This document shows positions 30,095 through 62,696 of a stretch of 64,000 nucleotides of DNA, one piece after another. Source of the stretch: a virus; the IMG/VR virus record IMGVR_UViG_3300031920_000309. One strand, written 5' to 3'. Each line of letters opens with the position of its first letter. Positions within the stretch are counted from its first letter, which is position 1. The notes beneath the pieces are model-generated. The model saw only the letters and a list, made by a program, of their open reading frames with translations, ran no database searches and was not told the origin of the DNA. Made by a program: the position numbers and the translations under genes.

Positions 30095-30424
30095 TTAATA
30101 CGTTCCTAATAACGGGGGTGGATATGCATGTGCATTTGGTAGTGGGATTGCCCCACATGACGCCAATAACACCAATTCCGCAATACACGCATCAGCACCC
30201 ACGCGGTCGGCCACACGATCAGTAACAATATGAAGCCAAGCCGACCACGCGGCATAAATACCACCAACCTGGCACATATACGCGACGGCATCGTCGTTGT
30301 GGAACCATTGCCTGTGGTTCGGACCGATTGCTTTTGCGTATATATCCAGTATTCGGTGGACACCAGGATATTGTACACCAATAAACATCAAGTCGACGTT
30401 CAGATGAAACCCGTGGCTCGGCAC
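30095..30424 (-). CDS. His-rich putative metal-binding protein
   Basis: GGAGG RBS; MPSHGFH...VHRILD...NHRQWFHND...LHIVTD. Confidence 0.6.
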   Translation of the reverse strand: MPSHGFHLNVDLMFIGVQYPGVHRILDIYAKAIGPNHRQWFHNDDAVAYMCQVGGIYAAWSAWLHIVTDRVADRVGADACIAELVLLASCGAIPLPNAHAYPPPLLGTY

Positions 30425-31185
30425 GACCACCCCTCCACACCGAAGTTTATTTCTGGGTTCATGGCCCAATGGTTATACAACAAACTGAACCAGTGCCATC
30501 TGTTGTGGTTCGTCTTTGTGTGGCAATTCGTGCACAGCGGTAGCAAGTTCCAATCCGCCGTTGTGCATCCTTGCATCTTGTTGTAATCGGTGTGGTGTAC
30601 ACAATGTTTTTTACCGTTCTCTTCCGCACCACACAAATAACATTTTCTATCATGCAGTTCTCGAATCTCCTCTTTCTTTGCTTCATTAAACTTGAAACAA
30701 TACGGTGCGAACGAAACACCGCCCCGCCAACCGGGGTTCTTCCCCCCCCGTTTTGCCTCGCTTAGGTTTTGTCTGGTTTCATCCGAAACATATTTATTTC
30801 TGTGAGCGTTGCCTATTTTTTGTTTGGTTTCTTCTGAAAGATGTCTTCCTTTACGCAATTCGCTTAGTTTCTTTCTGGTTTCTTCGGAAGGATGCTTGCC
30901 TCGTTTTGCTTCGCTTATTTTCTGCCGAGTTTCTTCCGAACGATGTTTACCATAATTGAGATTTTTGTTTCCTCTCTGCGCATCACTCATTTTTCGTTTG
31001 GTTTCCGCTGAATGGTATCTCCCTCTGCTTGTTTCGCTGATCGTTCGCGCACAAACACCAAACGCGTGTAGCCAGTTACGTATCGTCGTCCTGCTACAGT
31101 CAGCAAGCTTTGCAATCTCACGTGGTGACAATTCTTCAATGTCGTGTTTCTCTCGCATCCACGCTTCATTTTTGTATAGCATCAT
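30400..31185 (-). CDS. Free-standing HNH homing endonuclease with HTH and NUMOD3 repeats
   Basis: HSAETKRKMSDAQRG-type repeats; CYLCG...HCVHHTDYNK...LCTNCHTKTN. Confidence 0.92.
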   Translation of the reverse strand: MMLYKNEAWMREKHDIEELSPREIAKLADCSRTTIRNWLHAFGVCARTISETSRGRYHSAETKRKMSDAQRGNKNLNYGKHRSEETRQKISEAKRGKHPSEETRKKLSELRKGRHLSEETKQKIGNAHRNKYVSDETRQNLSEAKRGGKNPGWRGGVSFAPYCFKFNEAKKEEIRELHDRKCYLCGAEENGKKHCVHHTDYNKMQGCTTADWNLLPLCTNCHTKTNHNRWHWFSLLYNHWAMNPEINFGVEGWSCRATGFI

Positions 31186-31385
31186 TTCTCCTGAATTCGT
31201 TTTGCCATCGCAAGCAGGGCATCCAACCCATACTTCGTGATGCTGTACGTGCTGTTCGTACGGATATGTTCGTGGAGGAGCAACCAATCCCCAAACCGCT
31301 CCAGTTCCTTTGCTTCTTCTGTCGATATCAGGCAACACATACTGAACCGATTTTTCCCTCTCGGAGCAAAACTTTTCCATGGCAT
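31182..31385 (-). CDS. Small RHH-like protein
   Basis: RFSMCCLISTEEAKELE...SITKYGLDALL; ATGA-coupled to the HNH gene. Confidence 0.5.
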   Translation of the reverse strand: MPWKSFAPRGKNRFSMCCLISTEEAKELERFGDWLLLHEHIRTNSTYSITKYGLDALLAMAKRIQEK

Positions 31386-31476
31386 TGCACATCACCTCCA
31401 CATCGTGTCTTCATTTGCATGTACTACATGTAACACGGCAAAGATATATATATGTTTCCGATAAACAGACACAAAC

Positions 31477-34287: not shown

Positions 34288-34345
34288 TGTCCACACGCGT
34301 CAAGTTTGGTCAAGTTTATATAGAATGTAGTACACGTAGTATGCC

Positions 34346-35125: not shown

Positions 35126-35302
35126 TTAATCCACGAACACTTTTGGTCCAGGTCGTTCCCGATGGGACTTGATATAGCCCGTGATCGCCGCCCGCAACAC
35201 AGCACTCATGTTCGTTTCGTTGTCTATGCACAACTTCTGGAACTCCCTATGCATAGACGGGGTAATGAGCACGGCGACCTCTCTGTCTCGGCGTTTAGCC
35301 AT
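35126..35302 (-). CDS. RHH (ParG/CopG-like) regulator, not in ORF track
   Basis: REVAVLITPSMHREFQKLCIDNETNMSAVLRAAITGYI. Confidence 0.75.
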   Translation of the reverse strand: MAKRRDREVAVLITPSMHREFQKLCIDNETNMSAVLRAAITGYIKSHRERPGPKVFVD

Positions 35303-35339
35303 CGCATGGTAATATGGGCAAACTGGTATTTATGGGTTT

Positions 35340-35404
35340 CGGTATTACCGCGTCCGGGTATATATACAAGTGCCATAATATGGGTAGTTGGAGGTATTTA
35401 TTAA
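35340..35404 (+). promoter_or_regulatory. Promoter and RBS of the first capsid-like operon
   Basis: TATATATACAAG and GGAGGT upstream of ATG 35405. Confidence 0.6.
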
Positions 35405-36580
35405 ATGGCTGAAAGTTTCATAAGGAGACCGATCGACTTCATCTTCGATTTCGCCACAGTAAACGTGAGCGCGGGAGAAGAAGTTCGTACCGGCGAGCCA
35501 AGTTATGGCTACGAGGTCGACGGCAGGGCCGCCGTCAAGAACTACGAACTCGACAACGAGTCTGTTATGGAAATCGAAGGGATTGAAATAATGGGCCCCA
35601 ACAACGTAACGTACAGAGAAAAGCTGAAGGCGGTTAGGCTCGTTATCGACGGGAAAGAACACAACGAGATGTCGTTCAATGAGCAAATGTGTCCGGCAAT
35701 GCTTGGTGGCGCTCTGAACGTGGTACCTGACTTCAGGGACGGGTATGTATGTACCAATCTGGGGCGAGGAATGCTCGCGGGCGGTGACCCAGCAAACGCA
35801 ACTCCGAAGGTAGGACCTGGTCAGGATCTGCTTATCAGCGTAAACATGCCAAGGCTGACCGAAGGAGGCGCGGCAACCGTCAGCACCCCGATGAGAGTGA
35901 GGCTGCACACGATTCAGATCCGAGGAGAACACAAGCTCAACGAAGTGCTAGAACATTATGGGCATCTGACTAGCGGAAATGTCAATCAGTCATGGAGCAT
36001 GGGCGACCTGGAGAACACCATGGCCATGCCACTCAAGACGATCGAGAAAACTGTGGGTGACGGGGCATTTGGGTTAGCAGATTGGACCAGTCTACACGGC
36101 GGAAATGAAGCAGACCTACCGTACATCGAGAACTACATTACGTATGCGCAGAATTCTGCCGCGACCACGCCAAATGCTTGGTACCAATTCACCATGGAAG
36201 GGCAGCGCGTCGACCAGACGTTCCAGGAGCTAAACTGGAATTTCACACAGAGAGACGCACTGAAGTTGACCCACGTTGGGATGATGACGCACAACAACAC
36301 CGAGTGGGTAAGGCTGTGGAAAGACGGAAAGCCGAAGGTGCCTGAGTTCCGCGTGACACCGGCAACCAACTCGCTGCTGATGCCACAGGGCCGATGGACC
36401 AACACACCACAGCACAACGGGCCGACCAGGCTTGGTAGGTCGTACTGGGTGTGGAACGAGCATGGCGCGATAGAGCTGAAGGACAACGGGACGGCAGTTC
36501 CTGCATGGGCCGCAGTGCCGACAACTGGCGCGATGCTCGCTGTGTGGGGTAAGAGGTTCCACCTTCGCGGGACCGAGTGA
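35405..36580 (+). CDS. Putative capsid protein family A, copy 1 (double jelly-roll-like)
   Basis: 391 aa, two beta-rich halves; shares EIEG.EI, FNE..AP, T.K.GP, RYITYA.N, LTHVG, AVWG with two paralogs. Confidence 0.6.
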   Translation: MAESFIRRPIDFIFDFATVNVSAGEEVRTGEPSYGYEVDGRAAVKNYELDNESVMEIEGIEIMGPNNVTYREKLKAVRLVIDGKEHNEMSFNEQMCPAMLGGALNVVPDFRDGYVCTNLGRGMLAGGDPANATPKVGPGQDLLISVNMPRLTEGGAATVSTPMRVRLHTIQIRGEHKLNEVLEHYGHLTSGNVNQSWSMGDLENTMAMPLKTIEKTVGDGAFGLADWTSLHGGNEADLPYIENYITYAQNSAATTPNAWYQFTMEGQRVDQTFQELNWNFTQRDALKLTHVGMMTHNNTEWVRLWKDGKPKVPEFRVTPATNSLLMPQGRWTNTPQHNGPTRLGRSYWVWNEHGAIELKDNGTAVPAWAAVPTTGAMLAVWGKRFHLRGTE

Positions 36581-36969
36581 TAATCATGTACGCATCTTGG
36601 CATTTAGGCACATCGGAAGTAACGACAACCACCAAATTCGGGGTTGAAGGATATTGGGCCAAGCTGCCGGACGCATTCCCACCGATCCAGTACATCCGGA
36701 CCACATCAATCGCGGTGCCAGCCGACGGGAACACCCGTGGTTGTATCGTAACAATTGTCGAGACCACGACCGGCGACAACGGGTACGGCCCAGTACAATA
36801 CCACATAGATGCCAGGGGTATAATACAATACCAAACTGGTGATAAGTGGTTCTTGTTCAGAAGCAGGCCCGACCTGAGACTGAACCAAGAGGAACGACCG
36901 CAGATAGTATATACCCAAGTACAGTTGTACTATCGAGCATTGCCCGAAGTAGGCACCATAGGAGCGTGA
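36577..36969 (+). CDS. Small beta-rich structural protein, tandem copy 1
   Basis: MYASW.GTS.VTT.TKFGV.G.WA.LPD.FPPI family. Confidence 0.7.
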   Translation: MIIMYASWHLGTSEVTTTTKFGVEGYWAKLPDAFPPIQYIRTTSIAVPADGNTRGCIVTIVETTTGDNGYGPVQYHIDARGIIQYQTGDKWFLFRSRPDLRLNQEERPQIVYTQVQLYYRALPEVGTIGA

Positions 36970-37370
36970 TTAGCATGTATGCATCATGGCTAATCGGAAC
37001 GTCTGCAGTAACAACCGTGACCAAGTTCGGGGTTGCAGGACACTGGGCAAGATTACCAGACGCGTTCCCGCCAATACAGTTCATCAACACAACGTCAATT
37101 GCATTAGCAACAATGCCAACGAACGGATGTGTGGTGACAATCGGCGAGACAACGACTGGCGCAAACGGCCCAGGTCCGATCATTATGATCAGAGACCGCC
37201 GCGGTGTCGAACAATACGTGAAGGGTGACCGGTGGTTCAGATTGCGAAGTGGACCAGCAAATTCAAACGAAGCTGCGGTCGATCCAGCCGGGATACAAGT
37301 ACAGAGAGTGTTCACTCGGATCGAGTTGTATTACCGGGACAGTGTCGAGTTAGACACAGTGGGGGCATGA
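36966..37370 (+). CDS. Small beta-rich structural protein, tandem copy 2
   Basis: Paralog of both neighbours; GTGA overlap. Confidence 0.7.
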   Translation: MISMYASWLIGTSAVTTVTKFGVAGHWARLPDAFPPIQFINTTSIALATMPTNGCVVTIGETTTGANGPGPIIMIRDRRGVEQYVKGDRWFRLRSGPANSNEAAVDPAGIQVQRVFTRIELYYRDSVELDTVGA

Positions 37371-37771
37371 TTGAGATGTATGCCACATGGTTGGTAGGAA
37401 CGTCCGAAGTGACAACCGTGACCAAGTTCGGGGTTGCAGGACACTGGGCAAAACTGCCCGATGTATTCCCGCCAATAGAGTTCATCAACACAACGTCGGT
37501 AGCAATAGGAGCAATGCCATACCGAGGGTGCATCGTAACGATCGTTCAGACAACGACCGGCGACAACGGCCCCGGACCGGCAATAATGACAAGCGATCGG
37601 CGCGGTGTTGAAGCGTATGTAAAGGGTGACAGGTGGTTCCGTCTGAGAAGTGGACCAGCGACCCTGAATGCATTGGCAGTAGACACGGACAACATAGACG
37701 TACAACGAGTGTACACACAAATAGAGTTGTACTACAGAGACAGGGTAGATGGTGGAGAGATCACCGCGTGA
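37367..37771 (+). CDS. Small beta-rich structural protein, tandem copy 3
   Basis: Paralog with long identical nucleotide runs to copy 2. Confidence 0.7.
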   Translation: MIEMYATWLVGTSEVTTVTKFGVAGHWAKLPDVFPPIEFINTTSVAIGAMPYRGCIVTIVQTTTGDNGPGPAIMTSDRRGVEAYVKGDRWFRLRSGPATLNALAVDTDNIDVQRVYTQIELYYRDRVDGGEITA

Positions 37772-37800
37772 TCAACCCACCCAACTTTTCTTTTTTCTAT
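37772..37800 (+). terminator. U-rich archaeal terminator at a convergent junction
   Basis: CTTTTCTTTTTTCTATTTT after the stop codon. Confidence 0.55.
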
Positions 37801-38906
37801 TTTGTGTATTTGTCGTAGAACGTCTGGGGTACCAGATCGAGTTTTGCCATGAGCCAGAACAACGGTCGAAGTCGTTTGAACCACGGGCGGTATGTTTTAT
37901 AGTCCGTATGATCGAGTGGCGGACGATCCATTATATCACAACCGAATTCCGCGGAACCAACACCAAGCCGGTGTAATACAGTTTGTTTGGTGGCAGAACC
38001 AAATGCAGGATACGAACGAATTGTTTTCAGCGCATCGTCTCGATCCATCTGACCAGACCGCACCAGCGCAGAATACTCAACCAACCTGAGATCTATACCG
38101 AACTTGTGGTACAGATAGTAGTCATCACAAAACTCGGTGAGGGTGTTTTCTTTGTGGTGACCGCCGTACCATCTCCACCCGAACCTTTTCGCAAGGTATT
38201 GTTTTGCACCTTCCTTGTCATAATCCAGATAGTACAATGGCCGAACATGCTTGATGCGTTTTACGAGGGTCCACCACAACCAATCTCTGAGCCACAGATT
38301 AGGGAACGTCTTAAGTATGCCGCCAGACACCTCATCGACATACTTGCCATCAAAATAGAACCAACCAGGGGGCGTAACCCCTTCAGTCCTAAACGAATGA
38401 CCGTTCAATATGTATTTGATGCCGTACATTTCGGCAGCTCTATACGCACACACCGCCAGCGCAACGTCCACAGGAGCATCGAGTTCTGGTACCCCGGCAC
38501 GCAAAAACGCGCGGGTGATATCATCATACTCGTTAAGATCACACCGGAACCGCATACAACCGACGCCAAGTTCTTCAAGCACAACCTTCATGTTATGTTC
38601 AGCGATGTCCGTGTTCCAACCATTGTCACAATGAACGGCGAGTGGCCGCAGTCCGTTTTGGACCGCAAGATCAAGCAGGTACGACGAATCGCACCCACCC
38701 GAAATACCCACAACACAATCGTACGGCTTGTTTTTGCCAGACTTTCGTATTTTGTCAACCAGATCGTCCAAGAAAAACGCACCGGCAGGACCAGTTGGAC
38801 ACTTCTCACACATCACATCGTGTTGTTTACAGTAGTTACATTCACCAAACGAATCAAACTCTATGCCCGGGATGCTGTCGTCCATGACACAGCGAGAACA
38901 TCTCAT
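37797..38906 (-). CDS. N-acetyl sugar amidotransferase (WbpG/WbuX-like, PP-loop)
   Basis: CSRCVMD...CNYC N-terminus; YDCVVGISGGCDSS; VHCDNGWN; YGGHHKEN. Confidence 0.92.
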   Translation of the reverse strand: MRCSRCVMDDSIPGIEFDSFGECNYCKQHDVMCEKCPTGPAGAFFLDDLVDKIRKSGKNKPYDCVVGISGGCDSSYLLDLAVQNGLRPLAVHCDNGWNTDIAEHNMKVVLEELGVGCMRFRCDLNEYDDITRAFLRAGVPELDAPVDVALAVCAYRAAEMYGIKYILNGHSFRTEGVTPPGWFYFDGKYVDEVSGGILKTFPNLWLRDWLWWTLVKRIKHVRPLYYLDYDKEGAKQYLAKRFGWRWYGGHHKENTLTEFCDDYYLYHKFGIDLRLVEYSALVRSGQMDRDDALKTIRSYPAFGSATKQTVLHRLGVGSAEFGCDIMDRPPLDHTDYKTYRPWFKRLRPLFWLMAKLDLVPQTFYDKYTK

Positions 38907-39407
38907 TCAGATACCACCATAACCTGCTCCACCGTTAGTTACTTTTCTATACCGAAGCACACGTGCCGGATTACCCGCAGCCACCGCAAATGGGAATATG
39001 CTCTTGGTGGCCACGGCACCGGCGCCGACCATGACACCTTCACCGATTTCAACACCAGGCATAATGATTGCCCCGACACCGATATCAACATTGTCGTGGA
39101 TGCGAACAGGCCAATACACAAGGTCGTTGTCTATTATCGGAGAATCCCAACCAACGCCATCAATCTTGTGTGTAGACGTGATAATCTTCACATGAGGCCC
39201 GATACCAACATTGTTGCCAATGATAATATCACCAGCACCGTGTATATACACACCCTCTCCTATCCACACATCATCTCCGATTGTTATGCCATTACCATAA
39301 CCACCATCCAAGTATGTACCACAACCGATGGACACACGAGCGCCAACACGGATGTTACTACCATTACTATAAGACACACCACGGAACCGACCAGTAATTG
39401 AGTCCAT
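38907..39407 (-). CDS. Hexapeptide-repeat (LbetaH) acyltransferase
   Basis: IGDDVWIG, IGNNVGIG, IGVGAIIMPGVEIGEGVMVGAGAV, GNPARV. Confidence 0.92.
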   Translation of the reverse strand: MDSITGRFRGVSYSNGSNIRVGARVSIGCGTYLDGGYGNGITIGDDVWIGEGVYIHGAGDIIIGNNVGIGPHVKIITSTHKIDGVGWDSPIIDNDLVYWPVRIHDNVDIGVGAIIMPGVEIGEGVMVGAGAVATKSIFPFAVAAGNPARVLRYRKVTNGGAGYGGI

Positions 39408-39411
39408 ACTA

Positions 39412-40371
39412 TCACCTACCTTTTGCCCATTCTACAAAGCATCCCCATTTCTCAGCAATAACCGACGCATGGTGATGCGACCGGACCCACAGTGGCGCAT
39501 GACGAGACACCAAACCAGCCCCAGCATCATACGATTTGATGTCAAGGATGCGCGTTTTGACCACCTCGTACATGTCAAGACCATCACACGGTTTAACAGG
39601 GAAATCTGGGTAGATCATATAGCACCAAGGCCCGATGTAAGAGACAACGTGCTGCTGAAGAACCATTGCTTCGAGTACGTTAAGTCCATATGTCGGCATG
39701 ACCAGATCGTCGATCACAACGTGTGATTTTGCTTTCCGTTTGATCGTCTGTTCCCACGACAGGCCAGATATGGCATCAAACTTGACACCAGCCAGATCAG
39801 GATCAGATTCAAGTCGGGTGATAAGTTCACCACCCTTCGATCCGGGATTGGTATGCGCATGGCAAACCGTAAACTCATCGTTCTTTTCAATACCGTCAAC
39901 AAGTTCTACGATTTCGTCGATGTCAACGATGACAAAATCAAATGGTACGCCAATCAGTTGAGTTGTGAGAGTTTCGTCCTGAGGGGGAGTCACGACAACC
40001 AAATCACGTTTGATCTGAGCCATAAGCACCTGATCAACGGTGTGACGAAGGCCAGACCCGACACCAACGATACAATGGTTATTCGGAGTCAGGTACCGAC
40101 CGAGTGGAAGTTGTGGGATGTCAACGATCGAGTCCAGGAATATGAAATACGTACAATTCGAAGCATATTCCAACACGGTCGCAATTCCAACATTCTGCTC
40201 AAATACCCAGTCAACTGGATATTGGAGATAAGACTCACCAAACACCAGGCACCTCGCATCCCACCCAAGATATTTCTTCATCGCCTTAGCCATCAACCAA
40301 CCCTGGTTCCCGGAGTCCATACCCCCGGTCCCAGGGCCAATGCCAGCCACTATGAGAACTTGTTCGTTCAT
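39412..40371 (-). CDS. GT-B (GT4-like) glycosyltransferase
   Basis: VIDDLVMPTYGLNVLEAMVL signature. Confidence 0.8.
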   Translation of the reverse strand: MNEQVLIVAGIGPGTGGMDSGNQGWLMAKAMKKYLGWDARCLVFGESYLQYPVDWVFEQNVGIATVLEYASNCTYFIFLDSIVDIPQLPLGRYLTPNNHCIVGVGSGLRHTVDQVLMAQIKRDLVVVTPPQDETLTTQLIGVPFDFVIVDIDEIVELVDGIEKNDEFTVCHAHTNPGSKGGELITRLESDPDLAGVKFDAISGLSWEQTIKRKAKSHVVIDDLVMPTYGLNVLEAMVLQQHVVSYIGPWCYMIYPDFPVKPCDGLDMYEVVKTRILDIKSYDAGAGLVSRHAPLWVRSHHHASVIAEKWGCFVEWAKGR

Positions 40372-41348
40372 AATAAATCACGCTCTTCAAGGTGCCCGAC
40401 CAATCTATCATAACTATTTTTCAGGTTGTAATACTTGCACGCTTCTGTACCACGTTCCGCCTCCCACGTGGCGAACTCGGCATCGGTAAGCAACTTCTCA
40501 AGAAGAATGTCAACAGCAACCTCATCATGAGGAGACACCGCGAGTTCTGGCCATATGTGATTCATGGCATGTATGGTGTTCGACCCGATGGTAGGAACAC
40601 CGAGCGCGGCAGCCTCGACAATGCCTCTGCCGTACGTGTAGTCTGGGGCGAGATCGATATTGACGAAACAATCACCGAGCATATCAAGATACACCGCATA
40701 CGGTGACCGATCGACGATGTCATCGAACAGCGAGTCCAATGCAACGACGACAGTTGTATCGTTGTAGTTCATGAGGGCGGTGCGGATGCCGAACTGCTCT
40801 CTGTCGTGCCTCAGCCGGTACGTGCCGTAATAATAAGTGGCCCAGGTGTACATATACCGATGGTATTGGCAGGCCACCAACGGAGGTAGTGACGGCTGTT
40901 TGCGGTACGACATGATTTTGTCAACGTCCACTGGATGTGGGATAGCTGGAACGTCGTAACCGAGATAGTGCTCAAGACGACGAGCACCGTTCGGCTCAAC
41001 ATGGAATACAAAGTCCGCAAGCGCGAGCTGCTGTCGCAGGATGAGAGGATCTATGCTATTCCACAATCCAATCGCGAAGTCAACCTGTGTGACGATCTTT
41101 GTGTCACTATCAGGCCCAATGGCATCACGGATCGCAGCGATGTAGCTGGCATTGCTTGGGGTATAGTTGACATGGATTATGTCGAACTGTTCTATCAGTT
41201 CTTTCGTTAGATTCGCAGACATGTCACCCTTTTTGCCATGCGTATCAAATGCCACCGGCCAATTGAACAATCCACCAAGCACAATCTGATCCGATCCCGC
41301 AGGCATCTGGGCGCCCGAGAACAAACAATAAGATATTCTTCTAGTCAT
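40368..41348 (-). CDS. GT-B (GT4-like) glycosyltransferase
   Basis: YTYGRGIVEAAALGVPTIGS signature. Confidence 0.8.
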   Translation of the reverse strand: MTRRISYCLFSGAQMPAGSDQIVLGGLFNWPVAFDTHGKKGDMSANLTKELIEQFDIIHVNYTPSNASYIAAIRDAIGPDSDTKIVTQVDFAIGLWNSIDPLILRQQLALADFVFHVEPNGARRLEHYLGYDVPAIPHPVDVDKIMSYRKQPSLPPLVACQYHRYMYTWATYYYGTYRLRHDREQFGIRTALMNYNDTTVVVALDSLFDDIVDRSPYAVYLDMLGDCFVNIDLAPDYTYGRGIVEAAALGVPTIGSNTIHAMNHIWPELAVSPHDEVAVDILLEKLLTDAEFATWEAERGTEACKYYNLKNSYDRLVGHLEERDLL

Positions 41349-42318
41349 GTTTATCACGCGCGTTTTCTGTGTACCAATCAACAGTTTTTTCGATCCCGTC
41401 TTCAAACGACACGAGCGGATCATATCCAATCAGATCCCGTGCCAAATACGTGTTTGCGATATGCCTTCGCACGTCACCAGGCCGGTCATCTTGCCAGTCA
41501 ATCTCGACACTAATACACATTGCATCGATTATGGCGTCAATGACTTCATTGGTACTGGTCTCTTTACCAGACCCAATGTTGACAACCCGCCCTCGCGTTT
41601 TGGGCTGCTTGTACATATCGATTGCAGCACGAACTACATCAGTCACATAGCTATAATCCCGAGTTTGTTCACCGTTACCATATATGACAGGACGTCCACA
41701 ATTGAGCAGCCGTTTAATGGTAACGGGGATGATAGCCGCATACGTGCCGCAGTTCTGACGTGGACCAAATATATTAAACGGACGAAGTATTGCGCAATCG
41801 ATCCCAAACGTCTCGCGATACGACTGGATCAACATGTCGGACGCTGCTTTGCTGGCAGCATATGGAGTCAGTGGGCACAACGGATGATCCTCGCCCATGC
41901 TGACACGTTGGCTCGTGCCGTACGCTTCGGACGATGAGAAGTGTATCAACGTGTCGTAATACTCCTCACACAGCAACTCGCACATGGTTGAGGTGATGTT
42001 GATGTTGTTCAAGAAACTTTCCCGTGGGTGCACCAACGACGCGGGCAGCGGCTGTACCGCGAGATCGAACACCACATCAACACCACGGCTGGCCATGATA
42101 TCACGCGTGGTATTGTAATCTGCCACACCACATGCCGCGTCATACAACACGACACCAGGGAAGTGTGTGTCTGCGAGGTTGTCATACGAACCCAATGACA
42201 TATCGTCGACGACTACAACCTGGGACACCCGTTCTTTCACCAACGCATCGACAAGATGGCTGCCCACAAACCCGGCACCCCCGGTGACCATTACAACTTT
42301 ATTCTTCAGGGACAACAT
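41341..42318 (-). CDS. NAD-dependent nucleotide-sugar epimerase/dehydratase (extended SDR)
   Basis: VTGGAGFVGSH, SSSEAYG, PYAASK, RPFNIFGPRQ, TRDYSYV. Confidence 0.95.
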   Translation of the reverse strand: MLSLKNKVVMVTGGAGFVGSHLVDALVKERVSQVVVVDDMSLGSYDNLADTHFPGVVLYDAACGVADYNTTRDIMASRGVDVVFDLAVQPLPASLVHPRESFLNNINITSTMCELLCEEYYDTLIHFSSSEAYGTSQRVSMGEDHPLCPLTPYAASKAASDMLIQSYRETFGIDCAILRPFNIFGPRQNCGTYAAIIPVTIKRLLNCGRPVIYGNGEQTRDYSYVTDVVRAAIDMYKQPKTRGRVVNIGSGKETSTNEVIDAIIDAMCISVEIDWQDDRPGDVRRHIANTYLARDLIGYDPLVSFEDGIEKTVDWYTENARDKHD

Positions 42319-42322
42319 TTGA

Positions 42323-43447
42323 TTATAACCCCGCGTACACATACCGTTTCAGCAGCATTTCGATTTCGTTCACAACCCGTTCCTGGCCCTCTACCCCCAG
42401 ACCATGATACATCGGCAAAGTAAGCAGCTGATGATACAACCCCAACGAATTGCCAAAATCCGCGCACCGATCAACGTGAACAGCATAAAACGGCTGCTGG
42501 TGAAGAGCGTACGTGCCAATCTGGGTTTCGATCCCAACCCTTTTCAGGTCTCGGATCAACGCGTCACGCCACGACGCTTGGTCGACGTTTATGCAGTACG
42601 ATTGGTATGTTTGTCGTTCGTCACCAGTCGATGGAACGGGGGTGGTAACGTGATCAACGTCTTTCAACAACTCGTCGTATGTGCGTGCCATCGCGTTGCG
42701 TTCGGTAATTATCTGATCAATCTTACTCATCTGAACAAGACCGATCGCAGCATTGATGTCAGACATTTTCATGTTATATCCTGCACATTCTATGCGGCCA
42801 TCGGCCCACCCGAAGTTCTTGCGAACACGCATCTCATCGGCAAGCCCGCCGTCGTTCGTGACCACCATACCGCCTTCCCCAGTCGTAATGATCTTGCGCG
42901 GATGGAACGACAGAACCGACATATCGGCAAACGACCCAGTCATCTCACCATTTGATTGGCGAGCACCGAAACTGCATGCACAATCTTCGATTACGATATG
43001 GTCCGAGTCACACAACCTATGATCCCACACGTCATCGCGTATGGGACGTCCGCCCCAAGACACGAGCATCGTGGCACCAATGGGATACGGCATGCCCATC
43101 ATGTGATCAAGAGCATTGACACCAATACACTGAGTATGTGGATCAACATCAACCAACATTGGGTGGAACCCGTTGTGTATCACGCTGTTTGCCGTAGCAG
43201 GGTGCGTGAAATCGGGAACAATTACCCGCGTGGAATTCATACAAGCCCTGGTAACACGAACTGCCAAGTCCAGCCCCATTGAACAGGACGGAACGGCGAT
43301 GGCATGTTTCACACCAACGTATTTGGCGACAGCTTCCTCGAACTCGATGACAATTTCACCTTCGGTCAGATGTCCAGAGTCCATGACATCAGCAACAGAC
43401 TGTTTTTCTTCTTCACCGACCCACGGACGCATCAGAGGAATGTTCAT
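42323..43447 (-). CDS. DegT/DnrJ/EryC1/StrS sugar aminotransferase
   Basis: VIEDCACSFG, SFHPRKIITTGEGG (PLP Lys), GYNMKMSDINAAIGL, LTLPMY. Confidence 0.95.
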   Translation of the reverse strand: MNIPLMRPWVGEEEKQSVADVMDSGHLTEGEIVIEFEEAVAKYVGVKHAIAVPSCSMGLDLAVRVTRACMNSTRVIVPDFTHPATANSVIHNGFHPMLVDVDPHTQCIGVNALDHMMGMPYPIGATMLVSWGGRPIRDDVWDHRLCDSDHIVIEDCACSFGARQSNGEMTGSFADMSVLSFHPRKIITTGEGGMVVTNDGGLADEMRVRKNFGWADGRIECAGYNMKMSDINAAIGLVQMSKIDQIITERNAMARTYDELLKDVDHVTTPVPSTGDERQTYQSYCINVDQASWRDALIRDLKRVGIETQIGTYALHQQPFYAVHVDRCADFGNSLGLYHQLLTLPMYHGLGVEGQERVVNEIEMLLKRYVYAGL

Positions 43448-43653
43448 TTGTTCATTACCACCTTGGCAATATCTCGCAACCGATCGAAGTGGTTCCCAAT
43501 CTCAATAGCAGAATAATCACGACCGGGAAAAACAGCGACAAACTCGTCGCTGATCAACTGCAATTTAGTGCCATTCTGGACGTTGTTCGATTTAACCCAT
43601 TCTGCCGGGAGGGACACATGATAGCTACCACCGGACTTGGATACTTTTCGCAT
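43444..43653 (-). CDS. AbrB/MazE-type DNA-binding regulator
   Basis: MRKVSKSGGSYHVSLPAEWVK. Confidence 0.85.
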   Translation of the reverse strand: MRKVSKSGGSYHVSLPAEWVKSNNVQNGTKLQLISDEFVAVFPGRDYSAIEIGNHFDRLRDIAKVVMNK

Positions 43654-43689: not shown

Positions 43690-43770
43690 GGTATATAAAC
43701 ATTATGGAATACTATCAATATACAATACAAAGAAACGTATTTATAATACATCAGAGTATGTACACCTACT
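43690..43770. promoter_or_regulatory. Divergent promoter region (sugar operon / structural operon)
   Basis: TATATAAA and TTTATAA boxes in an AT-rich gap. Confidence 0.6.
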
Positions 43771-44805
43771 ATGAGCCCCGCATATATCGACCCCAAACGC
43801 ACAGCATATTGGCCCGAGTCGCTGCCAGAATGTCAGAACATACCAGCAGTCCCAGTAGGAGGGGTGAGATTCGCCTCTTACACGGACTGGGCACCACGTA
43901 TTGTAGAAGTACGACAATTGGTAACATCACCAGGAACAGCATGTGAAACGACTGTTAGTGTCGATGGCTTCAAACACGGGATGTCTTTCCATAACGAAGC
44001 GGATGCGATACACGACACAGTATACGCAGAACCGACCAAGGTATTGGCAAAGGACTCACTGGAACTAGCGATGAACACCATCACCGGTGGAGGGGAGACG
44101 AACCTCCATGCAAGATGGAACTTGACTATCAGAGACCCATCCATTGCAGACAAGATCGTGATGGGTATTCCACTAAGCGACACCGAAGAGGCAATCGCCA
44201 AAAAATACGAGCTACACGACATGCACGAGATGGGCACGTTACCGAAACATAAAAATCTGCTCGGTGACGATGTTGTCAATTGGTTCGACGAAGTGATTGA
44301 GGTCGCAAGACGCCTACCGACCGTAGCAGCAGGCGGTGAGTTGATAGTCGGTGGCGTGAAAAACGTCCCAATGTCAGCGAACAAGGTATTTGTACTGCTC
44401 GGGATCGCATTCGACACCGCCGCACTAAAAACTAACGCAGGCATCGGGCTGGATGACACATTCATCAAAGTAGATCGGGATGCAATGACAGAATATGTGG
44501 TCCTAGACGCAGCTACGATGCCAGGATTCGTTTCCACCGACGCTTTCCACTTGGACGACACTGTCCGTATGTACATGCCAGCACTGGAGAAATTTGCGGT
44601 GCGAATAACAACGACAACCGGGTTCACTGCTGCAAACAACCTGCGACTGCGGTACATATACGGTGTCAGATCGCTAACCGTAATAGACTACATAAAATGG
44701 GGGCTCACGCCACGAACGAACGCGGCAATTGCACGAGCAACCGAACTCGACGAAAAACACGACATCGCCGAACGTGTTGTAGCGGGTGTTCTTGGGGTAA
44801 TGTAA
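43771..44805 (+). CDS. Putative capsid protein family B with internal duplication
   Basis: Halves end alike: NLHARWNLTIRDPSIADKIVMG..KKYELHD..G and NLRLRYIYGVRSLTVIDYIKWG..EKHDIAE..AG. Confidence 0.55.
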   Translation: MSPAYIDPKRTAYWPESLPECQNIPAVPVGGVRFASYTDWAPRIVEVRQLVTSPGTACETTVSVDGFKHGMSFHNEADAIHDTVYAEPTKVLAKDSLELAMNTITGGGETNLHARWNLTIRDPSIADKIVMGIPLSDTEEAIAKKYELHDMHEMGTLPKHKNLLGDDVVNWFDEVIEVARRLPTVAAGGELIVGGVKNVPMSANKVFVLLGIAFDTAALKTNAGIGLDDTFIKVDRDAMTEYVVLDAATMPGFVSTDAFHLDDTVRMYMPALEKFAVRITTTTGFTAANNLRLRYIYGVRSLTVIDYIKWGLTPRTNAAIARATELDEKHDIAERVVAGVLGVM

Positions 44806-45139: not shown

Positions 45140-45475
45140 ATGCCTATATTAGGACGAGACGAGCCAGCAACAACAATAACACAACTAAAAATAAGTATTG
45201 CAGCGGCAGGACCGAACGAAATAATCGCAACACCTGGGGCGGGCAAACAGTTATGGATACACAAATTAATGTTATCGGTTGCAAGAGGAAGTCAGACTGC
45301 TATCACATACCAGTCGGGTGCAAACGAATTGTCTGGTGCGATGCAAGCAGATGTTATTGCAGACGACCTGGGATCATCCCCCATGAAATGTAATACAAAC
45401 GAAGCGTTCAATGTGACGTTATCTGACGCAGTTGCTGTGACAGGGTACGTGATGTACCAGGTGGTCAACGCATGA
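45140..45475 (+). CDS. Small single-jelly-roll-like protein, copy 1
   Basis: IAAAGPNEIIATPGAGKQLWIHKL...CNTNEAFNVTLS; paralog of 46625-46972. Confidence 0.65.
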   Translation: MPILGRDEPATTITQLKISIAAAGPNEIIATPGAGKQLWIHKLMLSVARGSQTAITYQSGANELSGAMQADVIADDLGSSPMKCNTNEAFNVTLSDAVAVTGYVMYQVVNA

Positions 45476-46614
45476 GTGTATCAAGAGATATCGTGGATTT
45501 TTATTTCAACATGGACCCAGCAAGCAACAAATCTGGAGTAGGGGTCGCTACCGGGGTGGAAATCTGGACCGGTGACAACGAAGACTATTTCGCAGTATTG
45601 AATGGCGTAATGACAAACACCAAATGGGAACTGCCAAACAATACCGTGGGCGAGATAGAAGGGGTTGAAATATATCTATACCCAGACTCACTTACGGGCA
45701 CGTATAACCAACTGAACTTTGTGCGGATCGATGTGAATGGTATAGATATACCAAACATCAATTTATGCGAACTAATGGCCCCTATGAACAGTCTGGGAAG
45801 GCAACCAGACTTAGGGCCATGGAGAGATGGGTCAGTATATCAGAACATTGGATTGCCGATATTGTTAGGCCATGATGGAACACGACCGACGATCAAACTT
45901 GGGCCAGGTGATATTGTTAGATGCCATGTGCAAAATTGTACTGCAGCACAAGGAGGAGTAACAATAAATGAAGCACTGGTTGTAAGATTGCACGTCGTAA
46001 CTGCGAAACAACCAGACATAGACGAAATGTTCGGGGGAACCATAGACCAGTCATTCGGTATACCGGGCGAACCGATGATATCAAAAACCGTGGATGCGTC
46101 GATACACGAGTGGCCAAAATTGCATGGAGGACAAAAGGCAGAACGGCCTAATGTAGAACGGTATATCACGTACGCTCGCAACATGACAGCAACAAGTCCA
46201 CACAAACGATACCGGTTTGATACGTCAGACGGTTCGGTGTTGGGAGATTGGTCAGAACTCGTCTGGGCGACCGACGATATTAACGCAGTCGAACTAACCC
46301 ACATCGGTGTCGCGGAAGACGAAACGAACCAGATAGGAAACCCACCGAACCTAGCATGGTTACACTTGCCAGAAAACAGAACACTTGCTTATTGTTATCC
46401 AATCGTACCATATATTGGGGTAGGACAGTTCCAGATGCCACTGCATAGAAGACTGTTACAAATGTTCGACGGTCCTGGAAAATTACCAGCACCGATAATA
46501 TTACAGAACGCCACAGAGTCGATTGAGATCCAAGACAACGGGAATGCCATACAAGCATGGGCAACAGGACCAGGTGTAAAAGTAGCAGTGTGGGGACGGA
46601 AATTTTACGTGTAG
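45472..46614 (+). CDS. Putative capsid protein family A, copy 2
   Basis: GEIEGVEI, RDGSV..NIG, TIKLGPGD, RYITYARN, LTHIGV, VAVWG. Confidence 0.6.
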   Translation: MSVSRDIVDFYFNMDPASNKSGVGVATGVEIWTGDNEDYFAVLNGVMTNTKWELPNNTVGEIEGVEIYLYPDSLTGTYNQLNFVRIDVNGIDIPNINLCELMAPMNSLGRQPDLGPWRDGSVYQNIGLPILLGHDGTRPTIKLGPGDIVRCHVQNCTAAQGGVTINEALVVRLHVVTAKQPDIDEMFGGTIDQSFGIPGEPMISKTVDASIHEWPKLHGGQKAERPNVERYITYARNMTATSPHKRYRFDTSDGSVLGDWSELVWATDDINAVELTHIGVAEDETNQIGNPPNLAWLHLPENRTLAYCYPIVPYIGVGQFQMPLHRRLLQMFDGPGKLPAPIILQNATESIEIQDNGNAIQAWATGPGVKVAVWGRKFYV

Positions 46615-50187: not shown

Positions 50188-51198
50188 ATGGTTTTCATGG
50201 GAATTTCCAGTATCCGGGTCGAGATATCAGAGCTGAGTGTATCGAAATCGGGGTGGACAACGTTGTTCGTCGATAAAAATTTCGCTGCTGCATCAGACGA
50301 CAACGATGGGTACTCTTGGTCAAGGCCAAAGAAAACGATTGGTGGTGCTCTTGCGGACGCAAAATCATGGTGTAAAATTTATGTAAATAGTGGACAATAT
50401 GAAGAAAACATCACAATTTCATACGAACATGTACAAATAATCGGTGTCGCAAAAGACGGTCCGGACATTGTCAACCTAAAATCAAGCATAGGAACACCAT
50501 TAACAATAACGGCTGGCTTCTGTGAGCTACAGACCTTAGCTGTAGAAGCTATAGATCAGCACGGAATCCAGGTTACTGCGCCAGGACACATATTAAATGA
50601 CGTAGTGGTAGCTATCACAAACACAACCGGTGTCGCCAGGATAGGGATATGGCTTAACGATTCGGACAGCACTGAAATTAAGAACTGCCATATAGACGGA
50701 AACGGCGACGACGAGGTGATCGGTATACTTGTTGGCGATGATACAGTTGGTGCGGAAGTCACGGAAAACTATATCACAGGATGTGGAGATGGGATTGGTG
50801 TGGGATGTGGAGCGGGAGGAGCTTGTACAGCAAACGGATATGCGATCGGAATTGCGGAATCAGCACAACGATGTATAATCAGCGACAACGAAATAATAAC
50901 TAATTGTGTGGGAGTTTACTTTTACAAGGTCGGAGCTGATGCGTTCAAGGGACATGCTGTCTTGCACAACGCATTCTGGGAAAATTGCTCATACGACGTG
51001 TTTGATTTATATGCTCCAGAAATAAGCGCAATTGCAATAAGAGAAAATTATTATGGTTACAGCGGCTGGTTCGTGGATTCCAACAACGACGGGCGGGCCG
51101 ACATCATCGTAGACTGTAACACAAACAAAGACCACGCACCCCTATTCAATCCCCAGACCTGGCGGACGGAAGCTATTTCTAGAGCGGGGTACATATGA
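50188..51198 (+). CDS. Right-handed beta-helix (pectin-lyase/NosD-like) protein
   Basis: PKKTIGGAL, G.Y.ENI start; periodic IKNCHI, VTENYI, ISDNEI, VLHNAF repeats. Confidence 0.85.
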   Translation: MVFMGISSIRVEISELSVSKSGWTTLFVDKNFAAASDDNDGYSWSRPKKTIGGALADAKSWCKIYVNSGQYEENITISYEHVQIIGVAKDGPDIVNLKSSIGTPLTITAGFCELQTLAVEAIDQHGIQVTAPGHILNDVVVAITNTTGVARIGIWLNDSDSTEIKNCHIDGNGDDEVIGILVGDDTVGAEVTENYITGCGDGIGVGCGAGGACTANGYAIGIAESAQRCIISDNEIITNCVGVYFYKVGADAFKGHAVLHNAFWENCSYDVFDLYAPEISAIAIRENYYGYSGWFVDSNNDGRADIIVDCNTNKDHAPLFNPQTWRTEAISRAGYI

Positions 51199-52076
51199 AG
51201 GGCATGGACCCGAGTGTGACATACAAAAACTACGATTGGATGTACCAAAAATACATTGTCGAAGAACTGTCCACACCAAAAATAGCAGACGTTGTGGGGT
51301 GTGGGAGCACAACTGTTTTTAGGTGGCTAAGAAAACTGGGAATCCGCCCCCGCTCTCGCAGCGAAGCTTGTCGTGGGAATAAAAACCACAACCACGGCAC
51401 AACGTTGTCAGAAAACACGCGGAAGAAAATTGGTGACGCACAACGTGGTAAACTTGTTTCAAATAAAACCCGGATGAAGATGAGCAAGGCACAAACGGGC
51501 AGGATACAATCGGAAAAGACTCGCAATAAAATCAGCGATGCTAAACGTGGTAAACCGTTGCCAGAAAAAACCCGACAAAAAATGAGCAAGGCACGCCAGG
51601 GACCAAAAAACCCAAATTATGGTAAACATCATTCGCCAGAAGCACGTCAGAAAATGGGTGATGCTGAGCGAGGCGAGAAACACCACTATTACGGCAAGAC
51701 GTTCACAGCCGAACACCGGAAGAAAATTGGTGACGCACAACGTGGTAAGAAAGGATCTAATTGGCACGGAGGCATTTCGTTCGAACCATACTGCCCAGCA
51801 TTCAACAAATCCAAGAAAGAAGAAATAAGAGAATCACACGGCAGGAAATGTTTCTTGTGTGGTGCTGGTGAGAACGGTAGAAAACATGCAGTCCATCATA
51901 CGGATTACAACAAGATGCAAGGATGTGACACAGAAGATTGGAATCTAATACCATTATGCAATCAATGCCACTCGAAGACAAACTTCAATCGATGGTACTG
52001 GTTCAGTCTTCTGTATAGTAACTGGGTTATGAACCCAGACATAAATTTCAACACGGCGGTGATAACACAATGGTGA
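51195..52076 (+). CDS. Free-standing HNH homing endonuclease with HTH and NUMOD3 repeats; paralog of 30400-31185
   Basis: LSENTRKKIGDAQRG repeats; CFLCG...HAVHHTDYNK...LCNQCHSKTN. Confidence 0.92.
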   Translation: MKGMDPSVTYKNYDWMYQKYIVEELSTPKIADVVGCGSTTVFRWLRKLGIRPRSRSEACRGNKNHNHGTTLSENTRKKIGDAQRGKLVSNKTRMKMSKAQTGRIQSEKTRNKISDAKRGKPLPEKTRQKMSKARQGPKNPNYGKHHSPEARQKMGDAERGEKHHYYGKTFTAEHRKKIGDAQRGKKGSNWHGGISFEPYCPAFNKSKKEEIRESHGRKCFLCGAGENGRKHAVHHTDYNKMQGCDTEDWNLIPLCNQCHSKTNFNRWYWFSLLYSNWVMNPDINFNTAVITQW

Positions 52077-56198: not shown

Positions 56199-56330
56199 AT
56201 GAGAGTCGATGATGAGAAACAGCGGAAAATGCTATTGGATTTGCTGGGTGCGGCGACGTTCCAAGGAACAGCCATAGACGAGGTAGCCACACTAAAGAAC
56301 GCGATCGTGGGAGCGAAGGTTGGTGACTGA
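56199..56330 (+). CDS. 43-aa hypothetical protein
   Basis: GAGGTGA RBS; stop overlaps the next ATG. Confidence 0.55.
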   Translation: MRVDDEKQRKMLLDLLGAATFQGTAIDEVATLKNAIVGAKVGD

Positions 56331-57448
56331 TGGCGATTTTGCGCTGGCCCATGGACTTCCTATTTGACTTTACCAGCGTACCACTGTTAGCTGGCGACAA
56401 AGCCACGACAGGGGACAACATCGCACATACGACACTGGTTAATGGAAGCAGAATCCACCCCGCATGGGAGATGCCTGCCGATTCGGTAGGAGAAATCGAA
56501 GGTGTAGAGATTCTACTACAACCAGACGCAGCCACAGACATATACAACCCACTTGAGTACGTAAGAGTAGAAATAAACGAAGTAGAGATAGAAAACATAA
56601 CGTTCAACGAACTAACGGCTCCAATGCAGTCGGGAGGGACACCACCGGGGGGAGACCCATTCCGAGATGGTGGCGTGTGTATAAATATCGGAAAAGGGCT
56701 ATTGGTGGGGGGAGATCCGACCACACCGACAATCAAAATCGGGCCAAAAGATAAAGTCAGAGTCGTGGTAAAGAACACCAGGGCTGCATATGGCGGTGTT
56801 ACAATAAACGAACTGTTGGTGGTTCGGTTATGGGTGGCGACTGCAAACCAGTTTGATCTCGAACAAAAGTGGACGGACGGACGGATACCGATAGGAACAG
56901 CATCAGCACCGAAAACAATTCTGGCCGAGATAGAAAAATGGACAGAAGGAAACGGAGGCGCGGAAGTGAAGACGCCGCATTTCCAGAGATACATCACGTA
57001 CGCAAAAAACATAACACCAACCACACAAAACGACCCTTACACGTTTGCAAGAAGAGCAGGCACAACAGAAGATCTATGGTCGGACTTGGACTGGAGAGTA
57101 GACACATCCAGAGTCGTGCAACTAACGCACGTGGGGGTTGCTGAAGACGAATCAAATGGTATCCACGTTGCACCGAACGTGTCGTGGATCAAACTTCCTC
57201 ATTATCCAGTTGAGCTGCCGATAGTTTATCCGGTGGCGCCGTACCCGAGCCTGGGACAATTCCCGATGCCGTTGAATCGGAACATGGACCCAACGTTTGG
57301 AGCACCCGGTAAGTTGCCACAGCCGATTAATATTTATAACGAGAACTGTTCACTAACGATACGTGACAGGGGAGATCCAGTCGTCGCATGGGCGCCAGGA
57401 GACGTGGGTGTAAAAATCGCGGTATGGGGATATATATATTATGTGTGA
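56330..57448 (+). CDS. Putative capsid protein family A, copy 3
   Basis: GEIEGVEI, FNELTAP, FRDGGVCINIG, TIKIGP, RYITYAKN, LTHVGV, IAVWG. Confidence 0.6.
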   Translation: MAILRWPMDFLFDFTSVPLLAGDKATTGDNIAHTTLVNGSRIHPAWEMPADSVGEIEGVEILLQPDAATDIYNPLEYVRVEINEVEIENITFNELTAPMQSGGTPPGGDPFRDGGVCINIGKGLLVGGDPTTPTIKIGPKDKVRVVVKNTRAAYGGVTINELLVVRLWVATANQFDLEQKWTDGRIPIGTASAPKTILAEIEKWTEGNGGAEVKTPHFQRYITYAKNITPTTQNDPYTFARRAGTTEDLWSDLDWRVDTSRVVQLTHVGVAEDESNGIHVAPNVSWIKLPHYPVELPIVYPVAPYPSLGQFPMPLNRNMDPTFGAPGKLPQPINIYNENCSLTIRDRGDPVVAWAPGDVGVKIAVWGYIYYV

Positions 57449-62297: not shown

Positions 62298-62696
62298 ATG
62301 AATGTTAAAATTATTGGCACAGACGAAGCTGTCGAACACGCAAGGGCACGGTTGAACGAGGACTGGATGGTTATTGTGGGCGACCTCAACATCATAGAAC
62401 ATCTGGAAAATGTGGTGTACACACCAGGGACGAACGACAACGCGGATTTTGAGGTTATTGGTATAATGCCAATCATATTTCTGGGAAAAAAAACGAAGCG
62501 ACTGGACGACGCACTGCAAAACCAGCCGGTGTTTGACACCACCCTGGCATTGTTGGTAAAACCCGACGAAATGTTACTGATGAATTACGACAAAAACGAG
62601 GTGTCGGTAGAAAAGGCCGCGGATGACATCGTAAAACTTGTCAGAATATCATTTGAATCCGGGGTGCTGTTCCCTGGGTTGTTGTTTGACGAGTGA
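62298..62696 (+). CDS. Hypothetical protein
   Basis: GGTGA RBS. Confidence 0.7.
   Translation: MNVKIIGTDEAVEHARARLNEDWMVIVGDLNIIEHLENVVYTPGTNDNADFEVIGIMPIIFLGKKTKRLDDALQNQPVFDTTLALLVKPDEMLLMNYDKNEVSVEKAADDIVKLVRISFESGVLFPGLLFDE

Follow-up and report, generated by a model that had tools for sequence, protein, structure and literature searches.

We analysed a 64,000-nucleotide stretch of DNA from the IMG/VR virus record IMGVR_UViG_3300031920_000309 (the whole of this stretch is referred to below as the window), which derives from a marine sediment metagenome and contains a minus-strand operon of sugar biosynthesis and glycosyltransferase (GT) genes. The original prediction, made from the sequence alone, had described this operon as a complete amino/amidino-sugar pathway placed between capsid operons. 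All seven open reading frames (ORFs) of the operon are present, running from position 43653 down to 37797, and family scans together with fold models of the two GTs agree with the identities that had been assigned to them, specifically an AbrB-like regulator, a DegT aminotransferase, a short-chain dehydrogenase/reductase (SDR), two GT4-like enzymes, a left-handed beta-helix (LbH) acyltransferase and a WbuX-type amidotransferase. There are ATGA overlaps at the AbrB/DegT and the GT-A/GT-B junctions, and the remaining junctions measure 0-20 nt.

The first gene of the operon (43444..43653, minus strand as are all of the operon genes) codes for an AbrB/MazE/SpoVT-like small DNA-binding protein whose match to PF04014 is marginal (25.2 bits relative to a cutoff of 24.7), and whose stop codon overlaps the DegT start codon. 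An ortholog also heads the operon in L003, one of the related metagenomic loci described below, where it exhibits 72% identity and a dN/dS of 0.05, and there are weaker matches in L006 and L022. A candidate promoter of the operon, as read from the sequence, is a TTTATATA box (43692..43699, minus strand) that is located 38 nt 5' of the AbrB-like ATG in a divergent intergenic region shared by the operon and a plus-strand gene that starts at 43771. Note that a sigma-70-like site (43719-43747) also fits as a promoter on the opposite strand.

The second gene (42323..43447) codes for a DegT/DnrJ/EryC1 sugar aminotransferase that depends on pyridoxal phosphate (PLP) (PF01041, 3.7e-84, 283 bits) and is followed by an extended SDR (41341..42342, with an alternative start at 42318; PF01370/PF16363, ~1e-47) that is a predicted nucleoside diphosphate (NDP)-sugar 4,6-dehydratase. 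Next are two glycosyltransferases that both have a GT-B fold, with the one designated GT-A (40368..41348, 326 aa) judged to be GT4-like and of the retaining type from its AlphaFold2 (AF2) model, and the one designated GT-B (39412..40371, 319 aa) assigned from an ESM Atlas model. The operon ends with a hexapeptide-repeat LbH acetyltransferase (38907..39407; PF00132, 2e-13) and a WbuX-family N-acetyl sugar amidotransferase (37797..38906) that scores above the cutoff of NCBIfam TIGR03573 (212.1 bits relative to 203.2). Thus all of the genes listed in the original prediction exist. There is no nucleotidyltransferase in the operon, so the pathway can be called complete only if it starts from an NDP-sugar supplied by the host.

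Predicted activities of the operon enzymes

The SDR contains a Rossmann GGAGFVG motif, a SSSE(A/V)YG motif (SSSEAYG in the window) and a YAASK motif. Alignment to reference enzymes from E. coli places the glutamate of SSSE exactly on the catalytic glutamate of RfbB (E136), Gmd (E135) and ArnA (E434), a position that is occupied by threonine in GalE. All viral SDR orthologs also contain the SSSE(A/V)YG...YAASK combination, as do 119 of its 120 nearest homologs in the database. Because the glutamate aligns with that of RfbB, Gmd and ArnA, and because the motif is invariant in the subfamily, we read the SDR as a predicted 4,6-dehydratase-type enzyme and, less likely, as an enzyme of the decarboxylase type. 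Its scores remain below the equivalog cutoffs of the RmlB, LegB and Gmd dehydratase models (189 bits relative to 365 for TIGR01181 and 187 relative to 475 for LegB).

The SSSE(A/V)YG subfamily is itself widespread, with members in at least 595 archaeal and bacterial species genomes, usually beside DegT, and it falls below every NCBIfam equivalog cutoff. It appears to be a family of sugar 4,6-dehydratase-like enzymes that has yet to be characterised. We rejected the idea that its members from Campylobacterota are LegB proper, as these also fall below the LegB cutoff.

The PLP lysine (SFHPRK) and the cofactor aspartate (IEDCAC) of DegT align with those of ArnB and WecE. All of the characterised proteins that best match DegT are C4 aminotransferases, specifically the GDP-perosamine synthase 3bn1 (1.8e-43), PseC, LegC, ArnB and DesI, and on the basis of these matches DegT probably acts at C4. 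None of the PseC, LegC, ArnB, DesI and WecE equivalog cutoffs is reached, with the best score being that for PseC (233 bits relative to 423).

In the LbH enzyme, the catalytic histidine located in TSTHKI is conserved and aligns with the catalytic-loop histidine of Maa, WcaF and WbbJ, which places it in the Maa/LacA/WcaF class. Judging from its genomic context, this enzyme would N-acetylate a 4-amino sugar in a role like that of PglD, PerB or VioB.

The TIGR03573 match of WbuX covers residues 3-321. The PP-loop (GISGGCDSSY) and the N-terminal zinc-ribbon cysteines (C3, C6, C24 and C27) are conserved with viral and cellular homologs, and SGGxDS is present in 119 of the top 120 homologs. Viral orthologs of WbuX are 70-75% identical to it, the best cellular homologs are 54-55% identical, and the top two named homologs are archaeal. 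Given this family membership, WbuX is predicted to turn an acetamido group into an acetamidino group. The concern raised in the original prediction that key catalytic residues might be inactive is not borne out, as the motifs are intact in DegT, SDR, LbH and WbuX alike.

The AF2 model of GT-A (pLDDT 81, pTM 0.84) matches PimA, MshA, BshA, SenB and PglA with TM scores of 0.70-0.76 at a probability of 1.0, and the Atlas model of GT-B (pTM 0.82) matches GT1/GT4 clusters with TM scores of 0.80-0.84, its nearest feature clusters being viral GT1. Neither enzyme reaches a Pfam GT1/GT4 gathering score (20.5 bits relative to 28.5 of PF13439 for GT-A, and no match for GT-B). GT-A orthologs are found in all types of the sugar island described below, and orthologs and paralogs of GT-B also occur in the relatives. 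The GT-A orthologs of L006 (11923-12987) and L008 (11937-12998) contain a zinc-ribbon-like CxxC...CxxC insertion of ~35 residues near the N-terminus that is not present in GT-A of the window.

We also explored how these genes are arranged in cells by scanning GTDB species genomes for the SSSE SDR subfamily and annotating 80 of the loci with hidden Markov models (HMMs) built from the viral orthologs. DegT is directly adjacent to the SDR on the same strand in 50 of these 80 loci, and within 4 kb of the SDR there is an LbH gene in 61, a WbuX gene in 18 and an AglZ/HisF2-like gene in 13. For example, one Methanomassiliicoccales locus reads WbuX-AglZ-GT-DegT-SDR-LbH, and in Methanoculleus and ANME-1 contigs DegT overlaps the SDR, followed by LbH in some cases, with flanking GT4 genes. 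This recurrent association provides good indirect evidence that the predicted dehydratase, aminotransferase, acetyltransferase and amidotransferase all work on the same sugar, and it agrees with the earlier claim that these genes make up one pathway.

The closest cellular relatives are archaeal. Specifically, the best SDR matches in the genome scan (52-57% identity) are from Methanotrichaceae, Methanospirillum, ANME-1 and Methanomassiliicoccales, and the named close SDR homologs are all archaeal. An LbH gene close to the viral one (at least 150 bits) occurs in 4 of 14 archaeal loci, which have DegT-SDR-LbH cassettes, versus none of 65 bacterial loci. The archaeal cassettes of Methanotrichaceae, Methanospirillum, Methanoculleus, ANME-1 and Methanomassiliicoccales metagenome-assembled genomes have the same DegT, SDR, LbH gene order as the virus, the same SSSE subfamily and nearby GT4 genes, with identities to the viral proteins of 52-57% for the SDR, 47-49% for LbH and 36-37% for DegT. 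They differ in being chromosomal, located among flippase and other agl-like genes, and in that the viral genes form a clade of their own. In a quick IQ-TREE phylogeny of the SDR, eight viral SDRs form one clade (SH-aLRT 97) that is sister to an ANME-1 sequence (93) in a group made up mostly of archaea. L006, L008 and L037 form another viral clade that has no clear placement, and L033 sits on a long branch. That the viral genes form their own clade indicates an old acquisition and not a recent host fragment.

A sugar island of fixed position and variable content

Upstream of the p130 genes that border the WbuX end of the operon is a plus-strand gene (MCP-A1, 35405..36580) that codes for a 391-aa double jelly-roll capsid-like protein with an AF2 model of high quality (pLDDT 91.7). 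In full-length comparisons with VIA-align this model obtains Z scores of 10.7 to P3 of PR772/PRD1 (249 residues aligned), 10.0 to the major capsid protein (MCP) of STIV, and 8.3 to Vp54 of PBCV-1 and to PM2, and the modelled fold makes it a probable capsid protein. It has 148 relatives in 1.84 billion representatives, 37 of them at E <= 1e-30. The window contains three double jelly-roll capsid-like copies, the others being a 380-aa paralog (MCP-A2, 45472..46614, plus strand; 520 bits with our own HMM) that is 30% identical to the MCP-A1 ortholog of L001/L002 (E 1e-40, tblastn), and a third paralog at 56330-57448 (287 bits with our own HMM). The description of the operon as lying between capsid operons therefore holds for the 391-aa gene on one side and the 45472-46614 paralog on the other. 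It does not hold for the 344-aa gene that is divergent from the operon (43771..44805, plus strand), which shows no detectable relation to them; we rejected a reading of this gene as 'family B capsid-like' as it does not resemble the double jelly-roll family at the profile level (hhalign probability 0.7%). The 344-aa protein is conserved, being 82% identical in L003, and its gene adjoins the head of the island in L022 as well.

Between the 391-aa gene and the operon are three tandem paralogs of ~130 aa, termed p130 (36577..37771, plus strand; found by tblastn and our own HMM). Every relative has copies at this position, some of them three in tandem and others a single one, as seen when L001, L015, L018 and L024 are compared with L003, L006, L008 and L010. 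The p130 proteins are candidate vertex or decoration proteins and possible acceptors of a glycan.

A metagenome scan with the capsid-like protein recovered 24 more loci. When we considered those lineages that have at least 4-5 kb of sequence beyond the capsid-like gene (n=13), a sugar island was found at the same position, just after the capsid-like gene and the small gene next to it, in all 13. The core of the island is composed of DegT, SDR and GT-A/GT-B transferases, and the remaining content differs by lineage. LbH and WbuX are added in most lineages, and in the distant relatives L006 and L008 an AglZ/HisF2-family gene adjoins WbuX (220 bits, under the cutoff of 310). L010/L026 and L020-L023 lack WbuX and have instead a FemAB-like acyltransferase, a WbmS-like protein, a second SDR and a third GT, and in L025 the gene order of the island is inverted. 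By analogy, this variation resembles that of bacterial O-antigen loci. The original prediction was thus right that the locus is real, and overlooked that it is one member of a family-wide island with a fixed position and variable content. We also observed NUMOD3/HNH homing endonuclease genes inside the island, located between GT-A and GT-B in L001 (967-1716) and between DegT and GT-B in L008 (19490-20212).

Searches elsewhere gave no further relatives, with no match of the operon DNA to GenBank phages, no relatives in IMG/VR scans with the capsid-like and WbuX proteins, and no provirus in 185,579 species genomes scanned with the capsid-like family.

The possibility named in the original prediction that the operon is a host fragment misassembled into this contig fails on composition, on conserved synteny in independent contigs and on dN/dS. 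Specifically, the GC, GC3 and tetranucleotide composition of the operon fall inside the range found elsewhere in the window, and the operon and its flanks recur in L001-L004, L015 and L017-L019, which are contigs from other samples. The p130/WbuX junction is spanned by independent assemblies in L001, L003, L004, L015, L017 and L018, as is the junction between the AbrB-like and 344-aa genes in L003 and L022. For every gene with an estimable dS, dN/dS relative to L003 and L001 is 0.04-0.2, with saturated dS, and the operon genes are under purifying selection. The operon is a resident of the virus and not host DNA brought in by misassembly.

Nucleotide identity to L017 is 55-80% over the island and 71-76% upstream, and by this measure the island diverges like the genome backbone. 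Over the capsid-like and p130 genes (window 35127-37800) identity to L017 is 85-95%, with a breakpoint at ~37800, which suggests that the capsid cassette was recently exchanged between lineages.

Proposed pathway, acceptor and host

Taken as a whole, we give somewhat better than even credence to the interpretation that this is a resident, functional glycosylation locus that makes an amidino sugar, with virion proteins as the favoured acceptor. The scheme that we infer, including the dehydratase activity, C4 regiochemistry and N-acetylation as well as the sugar, its nucleotide, the acceptor and the host, would start from a host NDP-hexose or NDP-HexNAc that the SDR, acting as a 4,6-dehydratase, would convert to an NDP-4-keto-6-deoxy sugar. 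DegT would then aminate C4 of the keto sugar, the LbH enzyme would acetylate the new amine, and WbuX, as an ATP-dependent PP-loop enzyme, would convert an acetamido group to a positively charged acetamidino group. Because there is no glutaminase partner here (neither a WbuY/HisH-type nor a WbuZ/AglZ/HisF2-type gene is found in the operon or among the scanned window ORFs), WbuX would take its nitrogen either from free ammonia/ammonium, which is plentiful in anoxic sediment, or from a host AglY/AglZ-like partner. The two soluble, retaining-type GT4-like enzymes would transfer the product, probably together with a second sugar, to the acceptor, and the AbrB-like protein probably regulates the operon. 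We regard virion proteins from the neighbouring genes (the capsid-like protein and/or p130) as modestly probable acceptors, because in all relatives the island keeps its place beside these genes and because it has no flippase, initiating transferase or oligosaccharyltransferase.

Several results weigh against this interpretation. In regards to the chemistry, the missing WbuX partner is one such point. A second is that no operon enzyme reaches an equivalog-level cutoff in NCBIfam except for WbuX with its subfamily model. In addition, the closest solved relatives of the SDR are the UDP-GlcNAc/Glc 4-epimerases 6dnt (2.3e-53) and PelX (1.5e-43), and the best PDB and NCBIfam matches of the LbH enzyme are maltose, galactoside and WcaF O-acetyltransferases (70 bits for the WcaF type versus 46 for NeuD/PglB/VioB). 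These last two observations favour a different reading, in which the SDR is a plain C4 epimerase and there is no linear pathway, with DegT, LbH and WbuX each tailoring a different host-made sugar; WbuX might, for example, amidate the 2-acetamido group of a HexNAc and the LbH enzyme O-acetylate another residue. We consider this quite improbable, as the solved epimerases have SSSA, SSAA or SGG at the position where the viral subfamily invariably has SSSE with its RfbB/Gmd/ArnA-type catalytic glutamate. Furthermore, DegT needs a keto-sugar and there is no other oxidase in the island, and the frequent placement of the SDR directly beside DegT in cellular loci also argues against separate roles.

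The choice of acceptor is likewise contested by the range of acceptors that GT4 enzymes use, which includes lipids and small molecules as well as proteins. The same pathway could be aimed at the host surface, with the GT4-like enzymes acting on dolichol- or polyprenol-linked glycans at the cytoplasmic face of the membrane. An altered N-glycan of the S-layer, pilus or archaellum, or an altered surface polysaccharide, would then lead to superinfection exclusion, as with seroconverting phages, or allow progeny to escape trapping. The structural matches of GT-A do include enzymes with lipid-linked acceptors (PimA, PglA and ALG2), the cellular cassettes belong to surface-glycan clusters that also contain flippase-like and GT4 genes, and according to the family description cellular WbuX-type amidation acts on surface glycans. 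We nevertheless judge a host-surface target to be unlikely, if a serious contender, since the island contains no flippase, oligosaccharyltransferase, initiating phosphoglycosyl transferase or membrane protein, and since every relative has it directly after the capsid-like and p130 genes. In addition, lytic-type structural modules rarely carry seroconversion genes. A much more remote reading, to which we attach very little weight, is that the GTs glycosylate hydroxymethylated bases of the viral DNA with an amino sugar as a protection from restriction, like the T4 glucosyltransferases and arabinosylating phages. The T4 alpha-glucosyltransferase (1y6f) and the AGT family are among the lower-ranked structural and feature matches of both GTs, and the element does invest in anti-restriction (ArdA). 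Against this, PimA, MshA, BshA and SenB are better matches than AGT, no pyrimidine hydroxymethylase is found among the ORFs scanned, the operon is in the structural and not the replication module, and the cellular counterparts are surface-glycan clusters.

In regards to the element itself, it is probably an uncultured virus of ~73 kb from a family of anoxic sediments with double jelly-roll capsid-like proteins. Its host is likely to be archaeal, and probably an archaeon of the methanogen, ANME or Methanomassiliicoccales kind. The promoters do not settle the host domain because TATA-like boxes are found 23-24 nt before the start codon of three genes only and because a sigma-70 reading also fits, the latter fit counting against an archaeal host. 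Also counting against it are that ArdA and Mtd are typical of bacterial elements and that many bacteria carry the SSSE SDR subfamily. The assignment of the 391-aa protein as a capsid protein is weakened by non-capsid folds that match it by only a small margin less, with Z scores of 10.0-10.4 for GH172 and 8.8 for PHM. There is also no family match to an FtsK/HerA-type packaging ATPase or to a single jelly-roll penton protein among the window ORFs, with 9.5 kb of the contig lying outside of the window. These results allow for the rather unlikely case that the element is not an archaeal virus, being either a bacteriophage or a non-viral mobile element with cellular-type double jelly-roll proteins that are GH172/DUF2961-like, as structures of these families score like capsid proteins. 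Shine-Dalgarno-like sites, ArdA and a Mtd-like protein are common in bacterial elements, the sigma-70-like promoter fits at the divergent region of the operon, and the portal and terminase, like the packaging ATPase, are not recognised among the window ORFs. However, Pfam DUF2961 did not match, the window has three capsid-like paralogs along with tail-fibre-like and beta-helix proteins and homing endonucleases, related contigs from many samples cluster at 57-77 kb, the nearest Atlas clusters are viral, and the closest relatives of SDR, LbH and WbuX, as well as whole cassettes, are archaeal.

Host-independent, virus-encoded sugar pathways have so far been a hallmark of giant eukaryotic viruses, with Mimivirus, Megavirus and PBCV-1 encoding their own glycosylation clusters or machinery. 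The parallel with these clusters that had been drawn in the original prediction is a fair one. The Mimivirus UDP-viosamine (R141/L136/L142) and bacillosamine genes, the Megavirus clusters and the PBCV-1 Vp54 machinery are like the present locus in having a virus-encoded dehydratase, aminotransferase and acetyltransferase with cytoplasmic GTs, double jelly-roll-type capsid proteins, independence from host glycosylation, and a gene content that varies by lineage. Unlike the giant viruses, the element described here has a prokaryotic and probably archaeal host, a genome of ~73 kb, one translationally coupled operon and archaeal-type enzyme cassettes, to which a WbuX amidotransferase is added; we know of no WbuX amidotransferase in giant viruses.

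Cellular acetamidino systems include WbuX/WbuY/WbuZ of E. coli O145, WbpG with HisH2/HisF2 of P. aeruginosa O5, PseA of Campylobacter and AglX/AglY/AglZ of Methanococcus maripaludis. By the family definitions used here (NCBIfam TIGR03573 and NF038364), the viral locus shares with them a WbuX above the curated cutoff, a PP-loop and zinc ribbon, and an association with DegT, SDR and LbH, and the distant viral relatives L006 and L008 also share the AglZ/HisF2 partner. It differs in being virus-encoded and, in the window, in having no HisH- or HisF-type partner. The sugar substrate probably also differs, being a 4-acetamido-4,6-dideoxyhexose and not mannuronic acid, fucosamine or nonulosonic acid as in the cellular systems.

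Among prokaryotic viruses, STIV (A197 with MCP B345), the GTs of rudiviruses and lipothrixviruses, and phage systems for virion glycosylation or seroconversion such as mycobacteriophage GTs and Gtr are alike in having virus-encoded GTs beside structural genes. STIV, whose host is an archaeon, has in addition a double jelly-roll MCP that is glycosylated, and this MCP is among those that match the 391-aa protein. All of these differ from the present locus in that they are isolated transferases that use host-made sugars, whereas here there is a predicted four-enzyme pathway with two GTs in a family-wide variable locus. To our knowledge, archaeal viruses carry only single glycosyltransferases. Our literature searches returned no paper in which an archaeal virus carries DegT or a similar cluster of sugar-pathway genes, nor one in which it has a WbuX-type amidation locus. 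According to one preprint, N-acetyl sugar amidotransferases are among the genes exchanged between viruses or mobile genetic elements of Nitrososphaeria and their hosts, with no such locus being described (10.1101/2025.08.23.671958).

A broader reading, which we put forward tentatively, is that these contigs represent an undescribed family of ~60-77 kb archaeal double jelly-roll viruses whose structural module includes an obligatory, O-antigen-like 'serotype' locus that would build a virus-specific capsid glycan coat in the cytoplasm. In this reading, which we hold to be conceivable though short of probable, the locus is organised as a conserved dehydratase/aminotransferase/glycosyltransferase core with interchangeable tailoring modules (amidino versus aminoacyl or other). 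If this reading is true, the locus would stand beside the capsid glycosylation of giant viruses as its prokaryotic equivalent, and archaeal viruses would have their first known nucleotide-sugar pathway. Self-made glycan identities would then extend to prokaryotic double jelly-roll viruses, acetamidino sugars may take part in how virus and host recognise each other, and O-antigen-like glycan diversification may operate on virions too. The locus also offers a compact set of four enzymes predicted to make a rare charged sugar. In addition, it delineates the SSSE SDR subfamily, which is uncharacterised and common in glycan clusters of both archaea and bacteria.

Other features of the window

The remainder of the window contains genes for a Mtd-like tail-fibre protein, beta-helix proteins, two NUMOD3/HNH homing endonucleases (30400-31401 and 51195-52076) and an ArdA antirestriction protein (99-701; PF07275, 9e-40), the latter being unusual for a putative archaeal virus, together with ORFs that are mostly of unknown function. 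Outside of the helicase, Walker A motifs are found only in a 3'-open ORF at 62638-63999 and in two unlikely ORFs. The 3'-open ORF codes for at least 454 aa with a Walker A GGAMSGKT and has no family match, which makes it a candidate packaging ATPase or terminase.

An exact ATGTAGTACAC is located directly after a TATA box at 34325 (window 34315-34345). We dropped the idea that genes are co-regulated via ATGTAGTACAC after TATA boxes, as the 22 matches in the whole window are not enriched relative to the 17.4 expected. Finally, a divergent promoter region at 31402-31476 contains the palindrome CATGTAGTACATG at ~31417-31431.

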